Shown: piece after piece, positions 9,603 through 41,183 of the stretch
How the letters are laid out: the number at the start of each line of letters is the position of its first letter
Position numbering within the stretch: the stretch's first letter is position 1
Assembly: GCA_030167865.1 (NCBI GenBank)
Contig: JALAGF010006097.1
Coordinates: forward strand, 1 to 64,000
DNA length: 64,000 nt
DNA from: Craspedostauros australis
Lineage: Eukaryota
Direction of reading: 5' to 3'
Made by a program: the position numbers and the translations under genes
Notes under the pieces: model-generated
What the model was told of the DNA's origin: nothing
Seen by the model: the letters and a program-made list of their open reading frames with translations, nothing else
Database searches by the model: none

Positions 9603-11063
9603 TCACCACTCCGCTGCCCTTTTCTTGGGCTTTTTCATGTCCTTACGCACCTTCGCCAACAACTTCGTACGATCATGATGCTGCTTCAACCAAGTGCCAT
9701 CTTTGTCGAGCCAGTCGTAGATCTCCATCGTCGACATCTTGCTGGCCTTGTCGTCGATGCCGCCGTTCGGTCCGTCTCTGTTGTAGTATGTGAGAAATTC
9801 CTGCAACAGCTTGGAATTCTTGGCCAGATCATGGAACCCTGGTTCGGCCAACAACTTGCGGGGGTCTTCGGACGCAAACCGGAAACATGCATCCTTCAGC
9901 GCCTCGCAACCGTTTGCATCACCAAAGAGAATCAATTCGACAACGGTGGCCTTCGACAAATGCTGCTCGATCATTTCTGCCTCGATGATGACGCGGAGTC
10001 TCCAGCAATCGAAATGATTTGCTGCCACCAGCAAACTTTTAAGATGCTTGCGATCCTTCATGTCGGGAGCGGTAACAAATGAAAAGTCTCCTGAGTAGAT
10101 GTACCGGAGGACGTACTTGACATCGATGGGATGAAAGTTTGAAAGGAGGATCGTTGTCTTCGCTGCATTCGCGGCAGGCAGCGTCGTGTCCATGTGGATG
10201 AGAACGCCGCTGTCGTCGCCGCTCTCGTCGTCCTTGTTTTCATCGGCGTCAGCTTCACTGTCACTTCCATGGAAGCTGCTGATGGTATCATCGATGCTGC
10301 TCACACCGAGAGAAGCCCTGGTCCGCGTTTCGTGCTTGATCCCAGCATGCAGCATGGTCTTGAGGGATGGTACAGTTGCAACCAAAATGGAGCTGTTGGC
10401 CTTGATTTTTTCTTGTATCGTGCCGTATCCCACGACGAACGTGACATCTGCCAGCGTGTCGTCTTCGAGAGCTTGCATTCGATCAATGTTGACATTGTTG
10501 GGAGTCGTACCGGAGAACATGCCTGCGGTGTCAAAGAGGCTCTTGTTGAGAGGCATGTCATTGAGCAAGCGTTGGAAGATGTAGTCGGTGACCTCCCCGC
10601 AACGGAACCCGCCCACCAGGTGGCGTGGTTTCAGCCCGGCGTAATCTTCAATGTGAATGTCAGCATCACACGACTCGGTGAGGTACTTGACGATCTCTAA
10701 GCGGGCGTATCTGCACGCATAGTGGAGCGGGGTCCTGCCTTTCTTGGTTTGGGTGTTGACGTGAGCCTCGCAGAATTCCACCAAATGCACCACGATGTCA
10801 AGCCAGCCATAGATGCATGCGTTGTGAAGTGGTGCAAGCAAGCGCTTGTTGAGGATGTTGCTGTTCGCCTTGCACTCTTCCGTCAAGTACGTCACGATGT
10901 CCAGATGTCCGTGGACGCACGCCCAATGCAGCGCGGTTTCGTTTCCGCCGTTAGTGATTGTGTTGACGTCAGCTTCTGGATGCTCCTCCCACCACAGCTT
11001 GACGGTGTCTAGGTTGCCGTTTTGGGCTCCTTCCAGCAACTTGCAGTGGCAAGTACTCGCCAT
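9603..11063 (-). CDS. Ankyrin-repeat BTB/POZ protein
   Basis: Ankyrin repeats (ETALHWACVHGHLDIV, APLHNACIYGWLDIV, TPLHYACRYARLEIV) precede a BTB domain (LADVTFVVG ... VLRYIYSG ... LLVAANHFDCWRLR) and BACK-like helices (ILFGDANGCEALKDAC). Confidence 0.9.
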   Translation of the reverse strand: MASTCHCKLLEGAQNGNLDTVKLWWEEHPEADVNTITNGGNETALHWACVHGHLDIVTYLTEECKANSNILNKRLLAPLHNACIYGWLDIVVHLVEFCEAHVNTQTKKGRTPLHYACRYARLEIVKYLTESCDADIHIEDYAGLKPRHLVGGFRCGEVTDYIFQRLLNDMPLNKSLFDTAGMFSGTTPNNVNIDRMQALEDDTLADVTFVVGYGTIQEKIKANSSILVATVPSLKTMLHAGIKHETRTRASLGVSSIDDTISSFHGSDSEADADENKDDESGDDSGVLIHMDTTLPAANAAKTTILLSNFHPIDVKYVLRYIYSGDFSFVTAPDMKDRKHLKSLLVAANHFDCWRLRVIIEAEMIEQHLSKATVVELILFGDANGCEALKDACFRFASEDPRKLLAEPGFHDLAKNSKLLQEFLTYYNRDGPNGGIDDKASKMSTMEIYDWLDKDGTWLKQHHDRTKLLAKVRKDMKKPKKRAAEW

Positions 11064-16005: not shown

Positions 16006-17214
16006 CTACTCGGTCTTGGCGGATATGGACTTCCGCACGAGCTCAAGCAAGGACGGACGGTCCATGTAAGACTCAAGACGCACGTCCTTGCAATCATTCA
16101 AACAGCCATACAGCTCCACCATCGACTTCTTCTCATACTCGTCGTCGCTGCTGTTGTCCTTGCTGTCCTTGTGAGCAAGATGGATCGCCTTCATCAGATC
16201 GACGCATCCACCCAGTTTGTGGAACTGCGGATCAGAAAGTAGCGCGCTCGCATCCTTCGCCGCAAGTCGGACGGCCGAATCCTTCAACACTTCGCACTCA
16301 TGCTCATTGGCGAAGAGCAACAGGTCTATCAACGTTGGTTGCATGAGATGCTCAGCAACCAACTTGGCTTCGATGGCGACTTTGAGTTGCCAACAACCGA
16401 AATGAGCCGCAACGATCAGCAGTTGCTGTAGATTGCCCATGTTGGCCATGTCGTCGTCATCCAAGAATGATGTATCAGCTGAGTAGATGTACTGGAGAAT
16501 GTAACGAACATGTTCGGGATGGAAGTCCGGTAGAGGGATGATGCCATCGCTTGTGCTGTCTGCCGAAGCCTCGGTCTCAACTTGATCGCCAATGCTCTGA
16601 TCGATTATCGCCTGGATGGATGGTATGGTGACAAGAAGAATACCGCTGTACGCCTTGATTTGTTGCTGTTGATCATCACGGCCGACGAGGAAGGTGATGT
16701 CCGCCATCCTGTTGTTTTGGAAAGCATCGAGTCTCTGCTGATTAATGTTGTTGTGGTTCGTCCGGAAAAGTGCATGAGTCACCTTGGCGCTGTGCACGAA
16801 CTCCGAAGCAACTGGTTTGAGTGGGTTTGATAGGTACTTCACGATAGCAGCATTGTTGGAGTTCTCAGCAACCTGCAACGCTGTTTGTTGCTTGTTGTTT
16901 ACGATTGTGATATCTGCTTGGCAGGATTCCACGAGGTACTTGACGACTTCCAAATGGTTGGCAGAACATGCGTAGTCGAGTGCTGTTCGTCCTGGAGTAC
17001 CTTTGGCATCGACTGTTGCGTCGCAGGATTCCACCAAGTACTTCGCAATGTTTAGTTTGCCACTCACGCATGCATAGTGAAGTGGCGTCTCGTGACGAGA
17101 AGTCTTTTCTGCGTCGATAGATACATGTGGGTTCGCTTGCTTCCATTTCTTGAAGATCTCTAAATTGCCCACGTGCGCAGCGTTGGTCAGCTGATCGATG
17201 CTGAAGGTCGCCAT
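16006..17214 (-). CDS. Ankyrin-repeat BTB/POZ protein
   Basis: ATG at 17214 (MATFSID). Ankyrin repeats ETPLHYACVSGKLNIA and TALDYACSANHLEVV. BTB MADITFLVG...ILQYIYSA...LLIVAAHFGCWQLK. Paralog of 9603-11063. Confidence 0.9.
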   Translation of the reverse strand: MATFSIDQLTNAAHVGNLEIFKKWKQANPHVSIDAEKTSRHETPLHYACVSGKLNIAKYLVESCDATVDAKGTPGRTALDYACSANHLEVVKYLVESCQADITIVNNKQQTALQVAENSNNAAIVKYLSNPLKPVASEFVHSAKVTHALFRTNHNNINQQRLDAFQNNRMADITFLVGRDDQQQQIKAYSGILLVTIPSIQAIIDQSIGDQVETEASADSTSDGIIPLPDFHPEHVRYILQYIYSADTSFLDDDDMANMGNLQQLLIVAAHFGCWQLKVAIEAKLVAEHLMQPTLIDLLLFANEHECEVLKDSAVRLAAKDASALLSDPQFHKLGGCVDLMKAIHLAHKDSKDNSSDDEYEKKSMVELYGCLNDCKDVRLESYMDRPSLLELVRKSISAKTE

Positions 17215-18540
17215 GGTCTGAGCCAGTATTGTGATTGGCGGATTGCTGTCAATGACGGAAATTATGGATCTTATCCGAAAGCGATCCCAAGGTCGGGTCG
17301 TCCTCGGTCCTTCCCGCGTTGTTGTTGGTTCGAGCCGAAGGCGGCATGGCGATTTCCTCGTGTGGAGCTGGCCGTGGCTTGAGTTCATCATTCTGGTTTC
17401 CTTGAGTTTTGTCGGTCGTGTCGGTTCCGTTTGTGTCAGGTCGCAACTGATGATATTCGTAATGCCATCGCCTGCTGGCGTGAGAGGCTCTGCCCACATA
17501 CTCGAGATCCTAGCAGCACCAGGATGACTGATGAAACGGAAGAGTCCCACGGTGGGCAGGAGTTGTCACGCGTGGCGCATTTCGATGCCTCTCGAGTTTT
17601 GCAAGCCAAGCGCCGTTCCGTCATGTCCACGCCGTCTTCGGAGCGTGCGCTTTGTTTGCGTCTTCGCTGTTGTATGATGCGATTTGCAGCTTCCACGCTG
17701 GATCTGTTCCACGAAGCACGATCGTACCCGCACATGCGTGAAGAATGTCGATGGTGCAATGACAAATCACACCCGTCCGATTCAACGCAGAGGGCCCACA
17801 CGATCGAGGTTGTATCTTGTCACGACCGCAAGCGCAATCGCAATCGCAACCACGATGGCCGAGTTGCAACTTGATGCTCGCCTCGCGAATCGGAGAAACC
17901 TCGTCAACATGGAAGATGTCGCAACGGACATGGACACGAACGGTTTGTCCGATAGACGTAGTTCGACGAGAGGAACAGCGTGCTTCAAACGTGCACATCC
18001 GGCACGATAAATCTGACGCAGAGGAAGAACAACTCACATCTGTCTTTCGCAAAGCCAACCAAACAGAGACAACGTTTTGTGTTCTTCTCAAATCGGCCAA
18101 CCATCAACAACAAGCAACACGATGGCAAGGAGTCCGCATCCCCATTCACATCCACATCGTCTCAGCCTTTCTCTCTGTGGTTGTGCACATGACACATGAC
18201 GCATGATACATCGCAAATGGCTATGATCAGCTCGTGAAACGAAGAGGAACAAAGGCACAATCATCGAAGAGGAACATTCATTCCAAGCGACACTTGCCAT
18301 CCGAGCCGCCATTCCGACCAAAGCAGGGGTTTTCCCGAAGAACAAAGGAGGGAAGATTGGAACAACAGAGAGAGGAGGGAAAGGATGTGAAAGACGCACC
18401 TCTCTGTTCACATCGGAGAGAACAAGGACGAGGATTGACTTGCATTGAGCAGCAGCAGCAGCAGTAGTATTGGCAGCAATCGCAGCCAGCCACAATCTGC
18501 ATACACGCGCACACACTCGTCAACGACAGAGGACGACGCC

Positions 18541-27727: not shown

Positions 27728-30700
27728 CTATCCAAAATCTGCTTCGAACGTCGAGTGAGACCCAGACCCAGACGAGGAACTTGATGCAGACCCGTAGCTC
27801 GAGTTCGATCCTTTGCGTGAACTTCGCGATGTTGAACCTGGCGCAGAACTTCCTGCAGAGCTTCCATAGGACTCGTTGCTGTAGCGAGATTGAGAGTCAC
27901 TTGTGGAGGTCGAATACGATTTGCGACTGGAGCGTGAAACCGAGTCTCCTGCAGAACTCGCGTGCGATCTCCTGCTTGAACGCGATGCTGAATCGCCTGC
28001 AGAGCTTGCATTTGATTTGCGGCTTGATCGTGATACGGAGCCCATGGCTGAACCTGCATCGGAATTGTCGTTGGAAAGCCACGCCGAATCTCCGGAAGAA
28101 CGGGCATACGACTTTTGACTCGAATGCGATGCTGAATCTGCAGCCGATCCTGAGCGCGAACTACGGCCCGATCGCGATACCACGTCGGCTTCGGCAGCCT
28201 TACCGGCACGGGAGCCGTTGCGTGAACTGTTTCCGGATTTCGACGATGCGACGGATCCAGCGACCGAGTTTTTCTGCGAACCGCTGCGAGATGTTCGGCT
28301 AGCCCTTGATGCAGAGTCCGCCACCGATCCCTTGCGAGAGCTCTTTGCCGAATTCGCGGCAGAAGCTGCGCCCGATCTTGCCGACGATCTGGACCCCACA
28401 CTTTCTTCGACGACTTCAACGTCATATTCCTCATCAATGAACTCTTCGATAACCTCCTCTTCTTCTACATCATCATCTTCCACCACTTCCTCCTCCTCGT
28501 AGGACCCTCCGTTTGATCCGTCAAAGGTCGTCTCGAAGGGTACATCCTCGAAGACCAATTCTTCAAATTCTTCTTCCACTTCTTCGACATCTTCAACTTG
28601 CAGATTTGCTCCTCCGAACACACCGTCGTCTGGTTTGATCGCCTTAGATTCTGCTGTTCCTCCAAATGCATCGTTTGAAAAGAAGTCATCATCCTCTTCA
28701 GCTTCTGCAGGTGTTTTGACATTCGCAAACGGATCCTCAAAATCCATCTGTGCCATTTGCTCTGTGATGTTCTCGGATTCGCTCTGGCTGTCAGAATCTT
28801 CTTCCTCCACCGTTTCGATTATTATTCCTCTTCGTGCTGACGATGATAGCGATGGGATCGATGCAGGTGATGGTGGTTCTGCTTTGCTCGGCTTGGACTG
28901 TTTTCGCACTGATGATGATGATGATGACGACGAAGATGCTGATGACGACGAAGATGCTGATGACGAAGATACTGATGACACCGACGCTGCCTTTGACGGA
29001 GACTTCAACGATGCCTTGGACGATGACGGTTTAGACGGAGCTGTTGATGACGCTCTCGATGATGCCTTCGACGGTGCTTTAGAAGAGGCTTTCGATGATG
29101 CCTTCGACGGCGCTTTAGAAGAGGCCTTGGATGACGCCTCGGATGGTGATTCTGAATCAGAAGACTTGACCGACGCCTTTGAGAGCGATTTGGATAACAC
29201 CTCCGGTCTTGAAGATGCTGATTTCGAAGATCCCTTCGATGATGCCGCAGATGGAGCTTTGGATGACGTCTGGGACCTTGCGGATGCAGGTTTGGGTGAG
29301 CCGTGCGATGACGCTTGTGATCTGGTGGATGCAGGCTTGGATGGTGCCTTCGATGATGTCTGAGATCGTACAGATGCAGGTTTTGATGATGCCTTTGACG
29401 AGGCCTTCGACAATGCCTTGGAAGACGCTTTCGACGACGCCTTCGACGACGCCTTCGAGAGAGCCTTTGACGATGCAGACGCAGATGATTTCGATCCCAA
29501 CGACGCTTCTTCGTTCAGCTCTGTTTCCGGTTCGGCTTTTGGTTCGGTCGGTTCTTGTTGATTGAAAAAGTCTGCGCTGCCCATGCCGCCTGCTTGATCT
29601 TCGCTGTCTTCGTTTCGCCCCCATTCATCGAAGTCGGTGTCTCCCGCTGATCCTTCTGTTTCTGTAAAATCCGGTTCCTTCTTTTCCTCCGCCCCCTGAG
29701 GGCTCCCTCCTCCTCTTTGTGCAGAGGGACTCGGAGACGGCGGCGGCGATTTCTTTGCACGCCGTTTCCTCGGATCCGGACCAATAAAGACTTGTTTCGA
29801 TAGCATGTTGTCCAGCACATCGATCGTCAGACCGCATGACACAAGATGATCAGCGAGACGATCCAACGGATCGACGATCTCAGTCATGTCCACCTCTGGC
29901 AGCGTATCTCGGCTGGCCTTGGGCACGAGAAGTTCGACTCTCGCTTCGGCAGATCGCAGGATACCATGCAGATACGTGCCCGACACGCGGCCATCCGTCA
30001 AACCGTCGGTTTCGCCAGAATTGAATCGCAACAGCGGTTCGAATTTGCGGCCGTCGTTGATGATGGTGGTGCTGCCGCAATGCAATTCGAAACCTTCCAC
30101 TCGCAGGTTGGAACGGATGAGCTTCGCTTTGCGCGGTCGCACGACCTTACTTTCGGCCGGCTCGATGGTGGTGATGAGCGGCAGGAGGTTCATGCCGTCC
30201 GTCTCGCCGACGCCCTCAACGCCATCTGGATCTTCCACTCTACGACCCAGTATTTGGAATCCTCCGCACAATCCCAAAATGTGACCGCCAGCAACGGCAT
30301 GCTCTTGCAAGAACTCGGCCCAACCGGAATTGCGCAGCCATCTCAAATCGAATCGCGTCAACCTAGATCCCGGCAGGATGACGGCGGTGGTGTGGGGATA
30401 CGGTTTGGGTATGTTCGTGCGTCTCCACTCCACGTTGAACCGAGTGTCTGCTTCCAACGGGACCAAATCGTCCGCGATCGCCGTGTGAGGATACGCAATG
30501 ACGACAACGTTCGCAGGTTTGCGAATGTTCGAGTTCGATGCCGTTGAGGACGTGTCCGTCGCATCATTTGTTGGTCGCTTGGAGATGACAGGTTTGCTCT
30601 CCTTGGCCAATCGCCGTTCGATGCCAAGACCATCCTCCTCGGGCAAGTTAAGATTGTACAGATACGGCACCACGAAGACTGGCTTTCCCACCATCGTCTG

Positions 30701-33170: not shown

Positions 33171-33658
33171 GGTGGTAATAGTACAATATGTCGATGTTAT
33201 TGTAGAATGTAGAGAATAATAGAATAGAATACACTATTAGATAATATGTTGCTGTGTGGTTTGCATGATGGCATGGATTGTGGGAGGAGAAGCAGTTGCG
33301 GTAGCGATGGTGGTGGCGGCAGTGATGTTGGTGTGGATCGCGGCAGTTGCTTGTGGATTTTGGTTGGGGTGATGACGAGAGCAAAAGAAGCGAAATTCGT
33401 GTCAAATTGAATCGTGTTTTGTTGTGGACACTAGTCATGTATGACTCATACGAATAACACATCCGGCAGCGATGACGTCATGAATTCCGATTGTGTTTTC
33501 TTCTCAATTCGAACCGAAAAAATGAATGAAACATGCCAACAAACAAACACCTCCACGAATCATCTCACCAATGCGATCTTTCCTTTCCATCGAGTTCTTC
33601 GTTGCTTTGGATGCGTGGCGATTGGCGTTATGGTGTTTGTTCGTTGGATTGTGGTCGC

Positions 33659-36382
33659 ATGGTAGAAAGCGAGCCATTGTACGACCCACTACAGTCCACT
33701 ACCAATTGCCATCGAAAGCCACTTGACATCGACATCGACGGAAGCAAGGAGACGACTCATCAGTCTAATGCAGGACGCATAAGAGAAGAAGAGAGCGGAG
33801 CAGCAAAGATGACGGTGCATAACCCACGGGATGCCAAGCGCGCAAGGATCAGCGATGAGTTGGAGGTCAAGCGACCTCAAGTGGACGATGGTGATGCTGG
33901 GGCTGTTGCTGGTGGTTCGCGCCATGGCGATGGGTCTCACGATAGCGAAGACGACTCGACGACGATGAGGGCAGTACACGATCTCTGCCTTCAATCCGGG
34001 CTGCCGACAGCGATCATCCAAGATGGAACCGTCGGCAGTTCCGTTCACAAATTGCGCTCCATCTTCCAGCGTGTAGGCGTTCGGACGTCGCTGCTATGCT
34101 CGCCGAGACCTGCGGTGTCGATCTACAAGAAATCTATGGCCGACTGCATGTCCAACGGAACTGCGCAGGAGTCGTGCGACTTGGTACATACGAGCCGACT
34201 GTATCTCGTCACGATGATGGGTCTCCATCCGCAGCAGCAGCAGCTGGAACAGATCTTCCAACGAGACTGCAGAGCAGCGTACATCTGCATCGCATTCTGT
34301 CAACGCTTGCGGGAGGTGTGTTCGGAGGCTTTGAATATTGCACAAATCCGTTCGGAGGTTGAAACGCTTGAAGGGTCCTGCAAAATCAATTTGTCCTGCG
34401 CATCCACATCCAAAGTGAGTGTGACGGGAGCAGCAACAGCTGAAGCCATCGACACGAACGAACATGTCACGAGCTCCACCACCCCAGCAGATAAACAACA
34501 GCAACGGATGGACAAGCTCATTGATGTCATCTGCCATCAAAGCCGCAACAGCACCATCCAGTCTTCGCAGTTGCGACGAGAGTTGGAACTCGTCATGGCA
34601 CAGAGCAGTACGCTGTCAAATGTCCTCGTGAATCGCTTCCAACGTGATCTATCCTGCACCATCACCGGCATGATGTTTCGACCATCCAGCGATGCAAACT
34701 TTGACAGAATCACCGTGTACCTGTACGATCCAGCCATCGACACGACAAGACCATCCTCGCTCTTTCAGTTCCTCCCATCGCAATGGATCATTCTGCAGCA
34801 TGGCATCATCAAACTCGTCGATGAGATGATGACCACCTTCTGGGGAGCATTGGAACACAACGGGTACATTTGCTCATCAAACTTTCGTCAACAACTTCAC
34901 GGCGATTTGCGGAGATTCTTGCTTTGGGGCATCTGCGCAGCGCCGGAGGCATCTGCAACATCATCATCCGAATCTTCGACTTCCATCACCAACGACATAC
35001 TCGTATCACAACCAATCTACCTCCATGCGCACTTCGAACCGACATCGCCACTTGCACTGTACATTCACGGCAGAGCAGGTTGCGGCAAGTCATCCTTCGT
35101 GCGACACTTCCCGCCGGCACTATCCGAAGCCATCGCGGCGCATCTCGATTCCAACCTGATGGTCCGTTTCATCAAGCAAAACTTGAACAAACCACATGAT
35201 GTGCTCAATTCCGACTTCGAATTGCGTCCCAACAACAATGACATGTCCATCATGGGCATTATCCAGCAACGGCGCATGACACGCACTCAGAATAAACCGG
35301 GGCTGGTCGTGCTGGGCATGGAGGAAATGCCAAGCGACCCGGATCAGACCAACGTCACTCAGATGATCCATCAACGATTTTCAGGTCGGCACTACAGCAG
35401 CGAGGATGCGGCAGCAAACCTGGGCAGAGCTAACCAAAGCGTGCCGCGCAACTCTGACAAACGCGGAATCCACAAGGATCGTTCCATCGTCACCATCTAC
35501 ACGTCCAATTACAAGCTCGAAGAGGATTGCGGCAACATGCTGCGTCGTCTTCCCATGTTCCAAACGTTGTCCACAATCACGTTGCAAGCGATTTCCGGTC
35601 AAGATCAGAAACAATTCTACGAAATGTACCTGACGAGATTGGTGGAACAAACGGCCAAAGCATCCAACGTCTTCGTGCGATTGGATGGTGGCCACAATGA
35701 CGACGACAGCGACATCCGAACCATCGTCCAACAAATTCGAATGGTCGGATACTACGTGCGGAAGATGATGCAGACCTTACCGCACACTCCAACGTTGACC
35801 GTTCAGGTTCAATTTCGTCCCAACGACAACAACATCGCTCTCCTGGTGGGACATGACCGTCTGGAGCTTCGCAAGGACCCCTCGGGCATTCTGCATCTCC
35901 ACGAATCTGATTCTCATTCCCATTCCAACATGTCCGTTCCATTCAATTGCAGGACTGTGCTGGACTATTGGAAGAATCACATACTGACCCCCACCGTCAT
36001 TGTCATCTGCAACAATCCAACCAAACACCAGAAACTCTGGAAGTCCATCCAAACCATGAGAGGTGCCGCTTGCCTGCCACAAACCATCCGTCCGTCGCAG
36101 CACAAAATGATGAAGAATCTTTACGATTCCACACAAACGACGAATTTGCGCGACGATCTGCTCGCGTTGCAACGCCACAACGATTGCATCGCCGTGGCCA
36201 TGGAATGTGACGACGCATCGGAGCAATGGATGATTCGCGAGATGGTGGAGGATACTCCATCCATGACGGCATTCTCATCAGCGTCATCGGCGTTGCAGAA
36301 GCATGGATTGCTGTTTGTGATTCACATCGTGGGAGAATTGACGCCGGAAATCCAATCGCGAGCATCGTTGGTGATGTCGTGA
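33659..36382 (+). CDS. P-loop AAA+ ATPase-like protein (Lon-type AAA module, no protease domain)
   Basis: Long uninterrupted ORF (33533..36382; start uncertain). Walker A LYIHGRAGCGKSS, Walker B-like LVVLGMEE, and sensor-1-like IYTSN. Confidence 0.65.
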   Translation: MVESEPLYDPLQSTTNCHRKPLDIDIDGSKETTHQSNAGRIREEESGAAKMTVHNPRDAKRARISDELEVKRPQVDDGDAGAVAGGSRHGDGSHDSEDDSTTMRAVHDLCLQSGLPTAIIQDGTVGSSVHKLRSIFQRVGVRTSLLCSPRPAVSIYKKSMADCMSNGTAQESCDLVHTSRLYLVTMMGLHPQQQQLEQIFQRDCRAAYICIAFCQRLREVCSEALNIAQIRSEVETLEGSCKINLSCASTSKVSVTGAATAEAIDTNEHVTSSTTPADKQQQRMDKLIDVICHQSRNSTIQSSQLRRELELVMAQSSTLSNVLVNRFQRDLSCTITGMMFRPSSDANFDRITVYLYDPAIDTTRPSSLFQFLPSQWIILQHGIIKLVDEMMTTFWGALEHNGYICSSNFRQQLHGDLRRFLLWGICAAPEASATSSSESSTSITNDILVSQPIYLHAHFEPTSPLALYIHGRAGCGKSSFVRHFPPALSEAIAAHLDSNLMVRFIKQNLNKPHDVLNSDFELRPNNNDMSIMGIIQQRRMTRTQNKPGLVVLGMEEMPSDPDQTNVTQMIHQRFSGRHYSSEDAAANLGRANQSVPRNSDKRGIHKDRSIVTIYTSNYKLEEDCGNMLRRLPMFQTLSTITLQAISGQDQKQFYEMYLTRLVEQTAKASNVFVRLDGGHNDDDSDIRTIVQQIRMVGYYVRKMMQTLPHTPTLTVQVQFRPNDNNIALLVGHDRLELRKDPSGILHLHESDSHSHSNMSVPFNCRTVLDYWKNHILTPTVIVICNNPTKHQKLWKSIQTMRGAACLPQTIRPSQHKMMKNLYDSTQTTNLRDDLLALQRHNDCIAVAMECDDASEQWMIREMVEDTPSMTAFSSASSALQKHGLLFVIHIVGELTPEIQSRASLVMS

Positions 36383-36638
36383 TTGTCCACGGTGCGAATG
36401 TCTAGGATGCGATGTGCTTTCCTCACCAGATCCAACCCCAACACCCAAAAGCCCGAATCTGCGTGACAGCTCAGCAAATGGCAAGGCATCACGTCGGCCA
36501 CAATCCAGACCAACCAGTTTCGTGTGCAAAGATGGTGGTCATCAACGCTCTGAGGAGAACCTACGACTAACCATTTCGAAGTTGCTTTACTAAGATTAAC
36601 ACTCTAATTATCATCAACATCAGTTCTAATCGCTAAGT

Positions 36639-39600
36639 TCACGCTCTAACAAGGATGCCCTTCTTGTCCTCTTCGAAGTCATCTAACAGGCCTTCGTTGT
36701 GGACGGCTTCAAAGGCCGCTGTGCCGTCTGTTCCGGCCAGCTTGATGATGGACTCGGCGCCAGCGGGATGCTCATCGGCAAAGTCCGTGAAGTCGTAGAT
36801 GGTGCCATGGACCGCCACCCACAGATCATCCACCGTGTTGTGCGTTGCCAGCTCTGCGGCCGTGATGGATGGAAGCTGTTTGACCGCCTTGGATTGCGTG
36901 GTCGCCGCTTTTGATCCCACATTGTGCGAGGACCGGTCCGTGGTGGCCTTCACTGGCAGTTTCATGCCCACGATGGTGCCGTAGACGGTGCATTCGAGCA
37001 GGGAGTTGCCGCCCAACCGGTTGTTGCCGTGCACGCCGCCAGTCACTTCACCGGCAGCATGGAGACCCTCGATGTAAGTGCCATCATCACGCAGCACATT
37101 GCCATCGTGGTCGATCTTGATGCCACCCATGCAGTAATGCAGGACCGGCGTCACTCTTCCGGCATAGAAAGTCTCCTTCGACAGATTTTTGCCGGCCACA
37201 CCACGGAACGACGTCTTGCCGTACTCGTCGCTGCCTGATAGCGCGGCGAATTGATACTCTTTGATGGTGGAGACGAGCTTGCTCTTCTTGATCCCAGTGT
37301 GCTTGGCCAGTGCATCGATGCCTTCGAGCTTGGTCAGCAAACCCTTGTGGGTGTACAGATCGACGTGCTTCTTGCCATCCGCCGCTGCTTCGGAAGCGAG
37401 GATGAGATTGAAGGTTGGGACTTCGGAGCTCGGGTCCCACTTGCCGGTCTTGGTGTAATTGGCATTGTGGGACAACATCTTGTCCGTGACGTACGCTCTC
37501 GTTCCCAGCTCGTTGCAAAAGCGTTGGCCATCATCGTTGATGAGCATGCCGCCGACGCCACGCATCAGTTCGGCTGCCAGGATCTTGCTGGGGTTGTGCG
37601 GATCTTTGGGATCGATCCAGCCGGTTGGATGGATCTGGACCTTGTCCATGTCACGCGTCGCCGCGCCCAGTGTTGTAGCTAGTGTGATGCCGTCTCCGGT
37701 GGAGAACGCACCGGCCGTAGCAGGCATGGACATGAACTCGGGTCTGTGCCGTTCGAGGTAGGAACCGTTGGATCTGTCCGCGGCGAACCCGCCCGTGGCG
37801 AGGACAACATTGTCGGCGAGAATATCGGTGGGCCCGTTCGGCGTTTCGCACGAGACACCAATGACGCGATCACCCTGCGTCACGAGCTTCATGACTTTCG
37901 TGTCGACCATGATCTTGACTTGACCCGTCTTTTCGTAGGCGCGCACTGCCTTTTGGATGTGGTAGATGATCTCGGCGCCCGCCATGCCGTTGCTGGGACG
38001 GTGCGTGCGCTTGTAGGAGTGACCACCGAGCTGCGCGAGGAGGGACAGATCCACGCCGACGCGGTTCTTCAACCATTGCACGGCGTCGCCGCTGTTCGTG
38101 ACGAGCGTCTCGATCAAGTCGAGATCGGCGACTTCACCGGCGGATTTGATGGTGTCGTTGCGGAAGCTGTCGATAAAGTCTCCATAGGTTTGGTTTTGCG
38201 GACAGCAGGCGTTGATGCCGGAGCTGGCCTTGTTGGAGTTGCCGCCAAGAAGATGCTCCTTCTCGACGATCACGACGGAACCGCCACGGTCCAGGATGTT
38301 GAGGGCGGCGGACAATCCCGCCAACCCGCTGCCGACGATGACGGCATCTGGCTGAGGCGGTTCAGTAGCTTCCTGATCGGGGAGCGATCCGATCGACCGT
38401 GCCAGGAGCAGGAAACGATCGGTGTCCTCGCTGTAGTGCTTGGCCAGCACGAGAAGCTCTGGATGTCGCTGCAGCGCGAGGTCGATGAGTTCCGTCTCTC
38501 GATCCACCGAGATGCGGCCTTCCCGGCCCAGGGAGGAGATCAATCCCACGACGATGTCGAGCAAATCGAAGGAATCCACCGTGAGAGCACCCGATTTGGA
38601 CGTGTCCGGCGGTGTGACGGCCTCCAGTGCCTGCACCTTCTTGTGCTGCGTCTCCCAGTACAGCGATGTCAATTCCCGCACCTCGACGATACTCTCGGAG
38701 AGGCGCGCGATGGTGTTGATCAGGGCGACGACCTCGTTGCGTTCCAACGTGAGGAGGTCCTGCGGTACGAATAGAATCTTCAATGCAGTGCCGTATCCCA
38801 GCATGGCCATCTTGCCGTGCAGCTTGCATTGCTGACACTGGACGCAGTCCAAGATGCTGGAGATGTTGTGGAAGACGCCCTTGAAGTTCTGCTGCAGGCT
38901 GACGACGTCGCCCGACGATTCGTGGAACATGACCGATTCATCGAAGGCGGAGAAGACGCTGCTGCAGGAGCGCAGGATGGCTGAGTCCAGCAACCGCTTG
39001 AGGAGGATCGATGCGGCGTCATCCTCCACGCTGTTGCCCGTGTGGATTGGGTAGTCGTAGAGGTGGCTGGACGCCTTTCGGACGGCACGCAGCATGACGA
39101 CGTAGGCGAAGTGGAGATTGCGAATGTACTCTGGATGGTCCTGGAACTTGTCCATGAAGTACTCCGGGTTGGCCTCGTAGGAGGTGCGGTTCTTCTTCTT
39201 GGACGGCGGGTAGTAGTTCTTGGCGATGCTGAGCGTGGTGGAGGTGTGCAGACCACTGATGAGACGGTAGAGGATGCGTTCTTCGAGACACATCTCCTGC
39301 TGTGAGTTCTGCGCGATGCAATTCTCCTCGTAAATGGCGTCCCAGATATGCTTGCCGTCGTAGGCCGTGTTGCGCTCTGGATTCTTTGCGAGGTCGACGA
39401 CCTTGGTGGTGTCGCCGGCGTTGATGTTGGAGCAGATGTCCATCCAGAAATGCTCCGGCAACGGATCGTCGTCATCCCCATCGCATGGTTCTGCCTCGCC
39501 GACGACCATGTCGGTCTGCTTCTTCCATGCGAAGGCATCCTGCTGTTGCTGCGAGTGGAATCCCTCCCGCTGAATTGAGTTCAGTGCGTTGGATTCCAGA

Positions 39601-40268
39601 TCATCGTATGCTGCCGAAGACTTCGATTTGGACGAGGATGTTGCTGGTGTTGCGGAACTCGATCCCATACCGCCGCCAAAGCCTGACGAGGCTCCAAAAC
39701 CAAATCCGAAATCTCCCATGGCATCATCGCTTCCCGTATCAACGGTGCAGAGCGGTTCGGCATCGTCATCGAGCTCATCCGCTCCACCAGAACACTCGAA
39801 TTCGTCCTCCTCTGGTTCTGTACTTCCCAAAGGTGGTGTTGCCTCCGTTGTGCTAGTGCTAGTGCTAGTGCTCGTGCTGCTGCTGCTAGTGCTACTGCTG
39901 CTGCTGGACACACCACCCTTGGTATCGGCATGCACTTTCGTCGATTGCAGCGGACAGTTGTGTTCCAAGTCCACAACGAAGTTTCGGAAGAATGCCTGGT
40001 GCTTCAATTCGTTGAGAATGGAATGCAACTGCGAATCGTTGGCCTTCTCCAGATCCTCCATCTGGCACAGCGTATCATCGATCTGTCCTGTTGGGAACAC
40101 CGTGTCGGGCATCCAGGTCGGCGATGCGGATCTGCGCCATTCATTATTGGTGTTGGGAGAAGTCTCCTTGGCCAAGCGCGTGGGAGAATCCAGAGCACGG
40201 ATGAGGCAAGGTGCCATCAATGCGAGCAGCATGGTTGCCGCATGCTGCGCTCTGTGTCGTCTACTCAT
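36639..40268 (-). CDS. ERO1: ERO1 oxidoreductin - soluble fumarate reductase - cytochrome b5 fusion protein
   Basis: Single ORF 36639..40436; likely ATG at 40268 before the signal peptide MLLALMAPCLIRA, although upstream ATGs exist. Ero1: VDLAKNPERNTAY, IWDAIYEENC, CLEERILYRLISGLHTS, ISSILDCVQCQQCKLHGK, LERNEVVALIN. FRD: VIVGSGLAG, GGNSNKASSGINA, VQIHPTG, LHYCMGG, GNNRLGGNSLLEC. b5: WVAVHGTIYDFTDFADEHPAG...AFEAVH. Confidence 0.95.
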   Translation of the reverse strand: MSRRHRAQHAATMLLALMAPCLIRALDSPTRLAKETSPNTNNEWRRSASPTWMPDTVFPTGQIDDTLCQMEDLEKANDSQLHSILNELKHQAFFRNFVVDLEHNCPLQSTKVHADTKGGVSSSSSSTSSSSTSTSTSTSTTEATPPLGSTEPEEDEFECSGGADELDDDAEPLCTVDTGSDDAMGDFGFGFGASSGFGGGMGSSSATPATSSSKSKSSAAYDDLESNALNSIQREGFHSQQQQDAFAWKKQTDMVVGEAEPCDGDDDDPLPEHFWMDICSNINAGDTTKVVDLAKNPERNTAYDGKHIWDAIYEENCIAQNSQQEMCLEERILYRLISGLHTSTTLSIAKNYYPPSKKKNRTSYEANPEYFMDKFQDHPEYIRNLHFAYVVMLRAVRKASSHLYDYPIHTGNSVEDDAASILLKRLLDSAILRSCSSVFSAFDESVMFHESSGDVVSLQQNFKGVFHNISSILDCVQCQQCKLHGKMAMLGYGTALKILFVPQDLLTLERNEVVALINTIARLSESIVEVRELTSLYWETQHKKVQALEAVTPPDTSKSGALTVDSFDLLDIVVGLISSLGREGRISVDRETELIDLALQRHPELLVLAKHYSEDTDRFLLLARSIGSLPDQEATEPPQPDAVIVGSGLAGLSAALNILDRGGSVVIVEKEHLLGGNSNKASSGINACCPQNQTYGDFIDSFRNDTIKSAGEVADLDLIETLVTNSGDAVQWLKNRVGVDLSLLAQLGGHSYKRTHRPSNGMAGAEIIYHIQKAVRAYEKTGQVKIMVDTKVMKLVTQGDRVIGVSCETPNGPTDILADNVVLATGGFAADRSNGSYLERHRPEFMSMPATAGAFSTGDGITLATTLGAATRDMDKVQIHPTGWIDPKDPHNPSKILAAELMRGVGGMLINDDGQRFCNELGTRAYVTDKMLSHNANYTKTGKWDPSSEVPTFNLILASEAAADGKKHVDLYTHKGLLTKLEGIDALAKHTGIKKSKLVSTIKEYQFAALSGSDEYGKTSFRGVAGKNLSKETFYAGRVTPVLHYCMGGIKIDHDGNVLRDDGTYIEGLHAAGEVTGGVHGNNRLGGNSLLECTVYGTIVGMKLPVKATTDRSSHNVGSKAATTQSKAVKQLPSITAAELATHNTVDDLWVAVHGTIYDFTDFADEHPAGAESIIKLAGTDGTAAFEAVHNEGLLDDFEEDKKGILVRA

Positions 40269-41183
40269 CGATGTGCTCGCATGGGTGGTGGAGGTCTTGA
40301 GCGAACCGTCATCCATGCTGTTCGCGATAGTGGTGGCTGCGTCATTTCTCATTCCGTCGGATGTCTGCCCCTCCAGTGCTTGGCGAGCACAAGCTGAGGT
40401 GCTTGTCATCGTTTGCTTGGGGGCAGGCCTCTGCAAGAATGCGAGGTGTGAAGTGAGGAGATAGAGTACTCGTACTGTATTGTTACGTTGATGACTGTGT
40501 TTGCGATTGTGTTTGTGTCTGTTGTGGTTTTGTGGCTATGCAATCATTCCTCCATCGTCATCACATTCGTTGCGTCATGATTTTTCGCATTGGTGTGGGA
40601 GGATTCGCTGTTGAACCATCCTCACTCTCCAGTTTCGCACTCTCCCTGTGCAGTTTTGAGCGGTATCAACGTCTCTTCTTTTTGGATCGGTGCGCGAAGG
40701 TGACAGCTCAGCCGTGTTTAGACTTCGATTTGGTTCCTTCTTGCAAACGTGTCCCGTAGACGTGCGACTCAACTCAAAATGTTACGTGGAAGACAACAAG
40801 GATAGGGAATGGTATGTTCGTGATTGGATACGCTGTTTTGGATCCATTTGGAGATAATAATAAATTACCATCACGACTCCCAACACAGCACGAACAAAAA
40901 CAAAACACGAAGCAAAACCAAACGGCAAAGCAGAAGACAAATTCGCCGCGTCCAAAGTCACACAAACAGAGAGCAACGGTCGACAACTTCGTGAAGAGTC
41001 CAAAGAGAGACAGAGAGAGGAGGCTGTTACAGGCATCACAACAACCGCATCATCCTCGTTGGCGTGGACATGCATCGTAATCGAAGATAGATATTATACC
41101 TACAATAACGACACAGCAACAGACACATCAATCGCATATTGACAAGCAGCAACAGACGCACAGACAGACAAACAATCTCCACA

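Follow-up and report, generated by a model that had tools for sequence, protein, structure and literature searches.

Introduction

Ero1 oxidizes protein disulfide isomerase (PDI) and hands the electrons to O2, with the formation of peroxide (PMC5638582). In yeast, the fumarate reductase (FRD) Osm1 has a form in the endoplasmic reticulum (ER), and loss of osm1 in combination with ero1-1 is synthetically lethal (cited in PMC5638582). Osm1 can move electrons from the flavin adenine dinucleotide (FAD) of Ero1 to fumarate and supports anaerobic disulfide formation, either by way of a free flavin in a second pocket or through direct, weak binding to Ero1 with a Kd of about 150-200 µM (PMC6242907). 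In the Ero1-Osm1 docking model of that study, the two flavins lie more than 20 Å apart, direct FAD-to-FAD transfer is called "controversial," and the docked Ero1 sits where flavocytochrome c3 (Fcc3) carries its heme domain (PMC6242907). Yeast is the only worked case of how eukaryotes form disulfides at low oxygen and without peroxide. Here we analyze a 64,000-nucleotide stretch of DNA from Craspedostauros australis (contig JALAGF010006097.1, positions 1 to 64,000 of the forward strand; hereafter the window), in which one gene encodes an Ero1 domain, an Osm1-type FRD, and a cytochrome b5 domain in a single polypeptide. We propose that its product is a disulfide-generating enzyme of the secretory pathway, most likely residing in the ER lumen, with its terminal electron acceptor built in. 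In the electron path that we favor, at a probability of roughly 60%, electrons would be wired from a dithiol through C206/C221, C525/C528, the Ero1 FAD, the b5 heme, and the FRD FAD to fumarate.

The fusion shares parts with several described systems. With yeast Ero1p and Osm1 it has in common the two enzyme families, the proposed net chemistry, and an FRD carrying the six catalytic residues of Osm1. Whereas Ero1p and Osm1 are separate, weakly binding proteins, of which Osm1 lacks a heme domain and uses the second flavin pocket, the fusion holds both in a single chain, has a conserved four-helix linker and an obligatory b5 domain, and carries an Ero1 of a distinct clade. Shewanella Fcc3 likewise is a soluble FRD with a covalently attached heme domain and the same catalytic residues; its FRD is fed by the heme domain and holds its FAD non-covalently, as is predicted for the fusion. 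However, it is a periplasmic, respiratory protein with an N-terminal tetraheme c-type domain, in contrast to the single b-type heme in a C-terminal b5 fold and the Ero1 thiol oxidase of the fusion. The same FRD and b5 families occur in the same order in stand-alone eukaryotic FRD-b5 proteins (the fungal "fumarate reductase (NADH)" and "osmotic growth protein" clusters of the protein Atlas), which have neither the Ero1 domain nor the linker. Canonical Ero1 proteins (human Ero1-alpha, yeast Ero1p, and plant ERO1/2) share the fold, the flavin-adjacent CxxCxxC, and the structural cysteines, but have a C-x4-C shuttle, a Trp three residues past the inner motif, no linker or FRD-b5, and O2 as the acceptor, and they fall on the opposite side of a branch with 100/100 support in our Ero1 tree. 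Finally, the closest solved relative of the b5 domain is the heme domain of flavocytochrome b2, the yeast L-lactate dehydrogenase, in which electrons pass intramolecularly from the flavin to the b5 heme through a mobile domain. Flavocytochrome b2, however, is a flavin mononucleotide (FMN) dehydrogenase of the mitochondrial intermembrane space with cytochrome c as its acceptor.

The original prediction for this gene, made from the DNA sequence, stated that no characterization of such a fusion was known. In agreement with this, our literature search found no natural Ero1-FRD fusion described; subscription journals lay mostly outside the search, and a description may exist. The fusion sequences themselves are not new. 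What is new is the recognition of a conserved, putatively heme-bridged, single-chain version of the Ero1/Osm1 route.

Results and Discussion

Three full-length domains in a single reading frame

The minus strand of the window contains one stop-free open reading frame (ORF) of 1256 codons counted from the first ATG (Table 1); its 3768 bases are uninterrupted, and no intron is required for the fusion. Pfam searches placed ERO1 (PF04137) at amino acids (aa) 127-576 (E = 8.6e-83; 278.8 bits against a cut-off of 27; profile positions 1-353 of 354), FAD_binding_2 at aa 688-1137 (E = 4.8e-82; profile positions 1-414 of 414), and Cyt-b5 (PF00173) at aa 1183-1240 (E = 3.8e-18; 65.7 bits against a cut-off of 23.7). 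Three full-length domain matches with E-values this low in a single frame are far beyond chance. Further FAD/NAD families of Pfam overlap the Rossmann part of the FRD domain and add nothing. Together with structural models, these matches give the order, from the N-terminus, of a signal-peptide-like start, ERO1, a four-helix linker, an Osm1-type FRD, and cytochrome b5, and the full-length AlphaFold2 model is confident for the domains. The three-domain architecture and approximate domain coordinates of the original prediction agree with the Pfam ranges, and every motif that it had named was recovered: CVQCQQC, QIHPTG, AELMRG, ELGTRA, LHYCMGG, NRLGGN, HPAG, and a second His.

The start codon was chosen by eye and by hydropathy. 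Translation likely begins at Met48 (the ATG ending at position 40268), the start that had been named originally, or at Met60 (40232). Met48 lies ahead of the sole N-terminal hydrophobic core (aa 60-70), which is also the only strongly hydrophobic stretch of the N-terminus, with a Kyte-Doolittle 11-aa mean of 2.55 at aa 60. A hydrophobic core precedes the Ero1 domain in 76 of the 91 evaluable diatom homologues, and the signal peptide that had been proposed is seen by hydropathy as a signal-peptide-like start. No further membrane-span-like stretch was detected when the hydropathy of the whole sequence was examined. The protein contains eight N-x-S/T sequons.

Table 1. Features of the fusion gene, with positions in the window and residue numbers counted from the first ATG
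Feature	Position	Strand	Remarks
Fusion ORF	36639..40409	-	1256 aa; stop codon 36639-36641
Signal-peptide-like N-terminus, aa 48-72	40194..40268	-	Basic stretch, then hydrophobic core MLLALMAPCLI
Ero1 domain, aa 105-597	38619..40097	-	Pfam ERO1; long disordered loop aa 156-313 within
Outer (putative shuttle-type) Cys pair C206...C221	39744..39809	-	Conserved acidic block EFECSGG...DDDAEPLC
Inner active-site motif CVQCQQC (C522, C525, C528)	38826..38846	-	Aligns with CxxCxxC of yeast and human Ero1
His531, three residues past CxxCxxC	38817..38819	-	..KLHGK here, ..RLWGK (Trp) in canonical Ero1
Four-helix linker module, aa 609-670	38400..38585	-	Conserved; outside any Pfam family
Soluble Osm1/flavocytochrome-c3-type FRD, aa 686-1154	36948..38354	-	Pfam FAD_binding_2; Osm1 similarity
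FRD-b5 tether, aa 1155-1178	36876..36947	-	Poorly conserved, disordered
Cytochrome b5 domain, aa 1179-1256	36642..36875	-	Predicted axial ligands His1214 (EHPAG) and His1237 (AVHNE)

The fusion is transcribed as one mRNA in relatives and is widespread

A search for homologues of similar length yielded 475 matches at E <= 0.001 among 7998 scored candidates. Each of the 120 matches listed has all three Pfam families; identities range from 54% to 73% and lengths from 909 to 1388 aa. Those with taxon names are all diatoms, namely Nitzschia, Cylindrotheca, Pseudo-nitzschia, Thalassiosira, Skeletonema, Cyclotella, Stephanodiscus, Leptocylindrus, Asterionellopsis, Detonula, and Mediolabrus. Since the 120 include four MMETSP transcripts with the mark "type:complete" as well as EukProt entries derived from transcriptomes, the fusion is a single mRNA in these relatives. 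For the residue comparisons below, the query and the 120 homologues were aligned with MAFFT (121 rows), and a divergent set of 26 fusions (36-45% identical) was used alongside.

Beyond the diatoms, a HMMER search with aa 330-1256 returned 1351 representatives at E <= 1e-30, many of which align with the query from end to end without a break, at 39-49% identity. All three Pfam domains were found in 21 of 22 such whole-query proteins; the remaining one (P0296) has an incomplete FRD match and stops shortly after it. Taxon names are attached to a minority of matches only. Named carriers, as proteins or clusters, include the labyrinthulid Aplanochytrium, Diplonema ambulator, two strains of Amoebophrya, Chromera velia, and the chytrid Batrachochytrium salamandrivorans, and a 134-member fusion cluster includes a partial protein of the prasinophyte Ostreococcus lucimarinus. 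A Trinity transcript of Diplonema and a transcript of Aplanochytrium have the same three-domain architecture, and the protein Atlas holds three ERO1+FAD_binding_2+Cyt-b5 clusters with 58, 55, and 98 members. The survey across eukaryotes that the original prediction had called for thus recovered the architecture in diatoms, a labyrinthulid, a diplonemid, Amoebophrya, Chromera, a chytrid, and the Ostreococcus cluster. The two Amoebophrya proteins (P0281, 1472 aa, and P0288, 1655 aa) are extended at the N-terminus by about 230-330 aa and contain inserts within the FRD that divide it into three to six matched stretches; neither carries an extra Pfam family.

Traces of the fusion are also visible in shorter records. 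A record of the haptophyte Chrysochromulina is named "ero1-like protein precursor fumarate reductase, partial," and "Ero1" models of Diacronema and Pavlovales run on into the linker. The cryptophyte Baffinella has both halves as separate models, Ero1 with 264 aa and FRD-b5 with 595 aa, on a single contig of 303,863 bases. Public gene models appear to cut the fusion in several cases: a 565-aa "Ero1" of Nitzschia inconspicua (P0123) ends inside the linker, Ero1 and FRD-b5 of Baffinella frigidus are modeled separately on that contig (P0136 and P0310), and the partial Ostreococcus lucimarinus protein (P0399) belongs to a 90% identity cluster with fused proteins of 1153-1293 aa. As the Ostreococcus cluster and the Baffinella contig show, some records, at the least, that look like "FRD-b5 only" belong to a cut fusion.

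Could the gene itself be an artefact of gene modeling or assembly, with two or three adjoining genes read as one? No RNA run was found for the fusion locus, and annotated genomes do sometimes split the gene, as in Baffinella and N. inconspicua. Against this stand the frame that stays open over its entire length with a conserved, structured linker joining the parts, the three families in every near-length homologue listed, the complete MMETSP transcripts and EukProt entries, and the Diplonema and Aplanochytrium transcripts, which together make an artefact very improbable. An 1838-base contig identical to positions 36400-37538, from a run whose kind was guessed and may be DNA, spans the FRD/b5 junction and not the Ero1/FRD junction, and is neutral evidence.

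Two expectations of the original prediction were not borne out. It had implied that the architecture is rare. Yet 404 fetched proteins, classified with hidden Markov models built from the diatom alignment, included 169 complete Ero1+FRD+b5 proteins, and databases hold many copies under automatic names such as "flavocytochrome c," "fumarate reductase (NADH)," and "Cytochrome b5 heme-binding domain-containing protein." It had also read the fusion as serving oxidative folding in hypoxic sediment or biofilm, whereas the fusion is found as well in planktonic diatoms, the Ostreococcus cluster, Amoebophrya, Chromera, a diplonemid, a labyrinthulid, and a chytrid. Given this spread over planktonic diatoms, the Ostreococcus cluster, parasites, and a chytrid, the fusion looks like a general form of oxidative-folding oxidase rather than a niche adaptation. 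A variant of the textbook pathway may therefore account for much of the oxidative folding in marine protists, which would bear on the peroxide load of the ER and on how these cells survive darkness or anoxia. The chytrid carrier is an amphibian pathogen, and the Amoebophrya carriers are Syndiniales parasites.

The Ero1 domain combines a canonical inner motif with a distinctive outer pair

The Ero1 domain matches human Ero1-alpha (3ahq, E = 2.9e-36) and yeast Ero1p (1rp4, E = 5.2e-33), and its core is modeled by AlphaFold2 with a predicted local distance difference test score (pLDDT) of mostly 85-97. C522, C525, and C528 of the inner motif are Cys in all 121 rows of the diatom alignment, and the last two also in each of the 26 divergent fusions. 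Five further cysteines, C152, C206, C221, C326, and C482, are identical in 120 of the 121 diatom rows. C206 and C221, which we take as the putative shuttle pair from their sequence context, lie in an acidic block with the diatom consensus EFECxGG...D[ED]DAEPLC. Their spacing is C-x14-C here and C-x10-16-C in relatives, in contrast to the C-x4-C of canonical Ero1; at the equivalent place, plant, oomycete, copepod, and rust Ero1 have C-x4-C-x2-C. The surrounding loop (39471-39944, minus strand; aa 156-313) contains low-complexity inserts, with a Ser/Thr run at aa 165-190 and a Gly/Phe/Ser-rich part at aa 225-265. These inserts are modeled as disordered and differ widely in length from one diatom to another, and only the acidic block around C206/C221 is conserved.

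A second distinguishing feature is His531. Among 293 fetched proteins with the CxxCxxC motif, the corresponding residue is Trp in 53, all of them Ero1-only, and His in 203 that have the linker and/or FRD downstream. The remainder comprise 35 Ero1-only proteins with His, mostly short, one Ero1-only protein with Phe, and one Ero1+FRD protein with Tyr. Every canonical Ero1 fetched has Trp (53/53), and the fused proteins with the motif all have His except for the one with Tyr. No Trp-type Ero1 was named as a diatom among the matches listed (120 of 380 shorter Ero1 matches, most of them nameless rows), and the diatom-named ones among these are fusion pieces.

The reductase domain retains the Osm1 catalytic residues and not its free-flavin pocket

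The best sequence match of the FRD domain is yeast Osm1 (5glg/5zyn, E = 1.8e-77); the flavocytochromes c3 of Shewanella rank next. Superposed on 5glg with Foldseek, the modeled domain gave a template modeling (TM) score of 0.90 normalized to 5glg, with a root-mean-square deviation of 2.2 Å and 36% identity. Six residues common to Osm1 and Fcc3 are needed for Osm1 activity by mutation (H281, E301, R304, R326, H435, and R477; PMC6242907). In our alignment they correspond to H927, E947, R950, R971, H1091, and R1131 of the fusion, and all six are identical in 121 of 121 diatom rows and 26 of 26 divergent rows. The flavin loop, GGNSNKASSGINA, matches the non-covalent loop of Osm1 in this alignment and has no His, whereas a His is flavinylated in membrane-bound SdhA/FrdA; the FAD of the fusion is probably non-covalent.

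We also compared the residues of the second, free-flavin pocket of Osm1 (S78, P162, W295, F297, L298, F362, and Y363). S78, L298, and Y363 are kept in the fusion, and P162 aligns to a gap. In the diatom rows, W295 is replaced by S/T/G, F297 by I/V/T, and F362 by L/H, each being kept in 0 of 121; none of the 26 divergent rows keeps W295 or F297, and 2 of them keep F362. By this alignment, the free-flavin pocket of yeast Osm1 is not conserved in the fusion.

The FRD-like domain might instead reduce another unsaturated carboxylate or act mainly as an oxidase, in which case the fusion would not be fumarate-linked. Urocanate reductase (6t85) is indeed a close relative (E = 2.6e-59, TM score 0.82-0.84), and the entry of fumarate into the ER lumen is unexplained even in yeast (PMC5638582). 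The best matches are nevertheless true fumarate reductases, Osm1 and the Shewanella proteins, and the invariance of all six fumarate-site and catalytic residues makes a different substrate improbable.

A tethered b5 domain is present in every complete fusion

The b5 domain is joined to the FRD by a tether whose conservation in the diatom alignment is 0.27 and whose pLDDT falls below 50 for aa 1157-1176. The best solved relative of this domain (3ks0, E = 2.2e-13) is the b2 heme domain already mentioned. H1214 and H1237 align with the two heme ligands of b2 and b5 chains and are invariant (121 of 121 diatom and 26 of 26 divergent rows), so the domain is predicted to bind heme. No complete Ero1-FRD fusion without b5 was seen among the 404 fetched proteins: 26 were classified as Ero1+FRD without b5, and all of these end inside the FRD or, in one case, 8 residues past it. 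A complex prediction of the Ero1, linker, and FRD parts of one relative (P0259, aa 24-900) with its b5 domain (aa 930-1004) and heme, run without an alignment, scored 0.01 against a mark of 0.34 and is neutral on docking.

At the other junction, aa 577-687 had no Pfam match, and the helical linker that had been noted there is predicted to be a conserved four-helix module. Its pLDDT is about 88-94 within the full-length model, and when folded alone it again formed four helices (pLDDT 80.9). It is conserved among diatoms and in haptophyte "stand-alone" Ero1 gene models. A fold search with the linker returned generic helical matches only, with a best Z of 7.0 (a ribosomal protein) and 12 chains at Z >= 5, scores in the range common for small helical bundles that point to no informative relative.

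A proposed electron path from dithiols to fumarate

From the sequence and its models, we infer the location of the enzyme, each of the electron-transfer steps that follow, the relay role of b5, and fumarate as the substrate. Reduced PDI-type proteins would give two electrons to C206/C221 on the long, flexible, acidic loop, and the outer pair would pass them to C525-C528 and then to the Ero1 FAD. The tethered b5 heme would reoxidize this flavin one electron at a time, instead of or besides O2, and would hand the electrons to the putatively non-covalent FAD of the FRD domain, with the b5 domain swinging on its tether between both flavins. The FRD domain would then reduce fumarate to succinate. 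Overall, dithiol + fumarate would give disulfide + succinate, without consumption of O2 or formation of H2O2. We also considered the opposite direction, in which FRD-b5 would feed electrons into Ero1, and rejected it since the succinate/fumarate couple is far too oxidizing to reduce disulfides. Targeting to the plastid or periplastid compartment was rejected as well because the fusion also occurs in non-photosynthetic lineages.

Several observations argue for the wired chain. The domains are full-length, and all the residues that each part needs are invariant both in the 121 diatom sequences and in the 26 far-diverged ones; Osm1, to which the FRD is closest among solved structures, takes electrons from the Ero1 FAD to fumarate in yeast (PMC6242907); the hydrophobic contacts of the Osm1 free-flavin pocket are not kept; and the fusion has been kept across very distant eukaryotes, with fused-type Ero1 on one side of a 100/100 branch. 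The potential of fumarate/succinate is about +30 mV. Given an ER thiol environment at about -190 mV (PMC5638582), thermodynamics would allow such a chain. As to the b5 domain in particular, a relay role is suggested by its disordered tether and by its nearest relative, the b2 heme domain. Other flavocytochromes have mobile b5 domains, which the tethered domain here resembles. A relay would also fit the constant presence of the heme domain, whereas the flavin gap of more than 20 Å makes direct transfer "controversial" (PMC6242907). The electron path of the original prediction is likewise compatible with this anatomy, with b5 in every complete fusion and the Osm1 free-flavin pocket not conserved.

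Alternatively, the parts might be tethered without being wired through b5. The FRD would then reoxidize a free flavin that shuttles between the sites, and b5 would serve a separate partner (another cytochrome, a ferric substrate, or O2) or regulation. Osm1 can receive electrons by way of free FAD, FMN, or riboflavin (PMC6242907), and the stand-alone FRD-b5 "fumarate reductase (NADH)" that is common in fungi implies a role for b5 without a fused Ero1. The full-length model, with a predicted TM score (pTM) of 0.50, also gives no confident interdomain geometry. This arrangement is nevertheless disfavored by the non-conservation of the residues that form the Osm1 pocket, by the retention of b5 in every complete fusion across very deep divergence, and by the fact that no other lumenal b5 donor or acceptor is evident, and we consider it a distinctly weaker candidate.

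Some points weigh against the wired, ER-lumenal chain. No biochemical, localization, or expression data were found for the fusion protein or its homologues, the protein ends in ..GILVRA with no ER-retention motif at the C-terminus, and, at the pTM given above, the way in which the domains are placed relative to one another is not predicted with confidence. The lumenal supply of fumarate, raised above as a point for a different substrate, counts here too. The Ero1 flavin may still react with O2, in which case the fumarate route need not dominate. Because the spacing of the outer pair is non-canonical, the partner need not be a classical PDI.

A natural single-chain version provides independent evolutionary support for a physiological link between Ero1 and fumarate, and the fact that a heme is always carried with both flavins suggests a solution to the flavin distance problem. 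The fusion also offers a self-contained protein in which the mechanism can be measured.

Fused-type and canonical Ero1 are separated by a fully supported branch

We built a tree of 66 non-redundant Ero1 cores (252 columns) with IQ-TREE under LG+C20+F+G4, with 1000 ultrafast bootstraps and SH-aLRT. One branch with 100/100 support splits a 15-row canonical clan from the 51 other rows, and this split is present in 200 of the 200 bootstrap trees examined; the two groups had been defined after a quick tree had been seen. The canonical clan consists of 11 Trp-type, one Phe-type, and three His-type Ero1-only rows; those with a name are Achlya, a copepod, and an entry labeled Rmarinus. The other 51 rows comprise 44 with a linker or FRD and 7 short Ero1-only sequences. 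Judged by record names, fungi, stramenopiles, and green lineages each include both types. Since the tree is unrooted, it fits one fusion or one fission alike. A bolder possibility, which we hold only tentatively and think unlikely, is that Ero1-linker-FRD-b5 is an ancient, perhaps ancestral, oxygen-independent disulfide machine and the only Ero1 of many protist lineages. The O2-dependent, Trp-type C-x4-C Ero1 and the separate FRD or FRD-b5, such as yeast Osm1, would then be a split or derived state, and the b5 heme would be an obligatory bridge over the flavin gap of more than 20 Å.

Neighboring genes

The neighbors of the fusion gene encode an mTERF protein, two Ank-BTB proteins, an ABC transporter, an RSN1_7TM channel, a GATase_3 protein, and GatB, and none of the neighboring genes in the window showed a functional link to the fusion. 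On the plus strand, a convergent 949-aa ORF (33533-36382) has its stop 256 bases from that of the fusion gene; it contains a P-loop-like GRAGCGKSS and matches no Pfam family at E <= 1e-5. The contig identical to 36400-37538 continues beyond 36400 toward this ORF. A 988-aa ORF on the minus strand (27728-30694) has as its only assigned part an N-terminal CobB/CobQ-like glutamine amidotransferase domain (aa 62-249), with about 700 residues without assignment. The two ankyrin-repeat and BTB ORFs (9603-11063 and 16006-17499, both on the minus strand; 486 and 497 aa) are paralogous and lie 5 kb apart.

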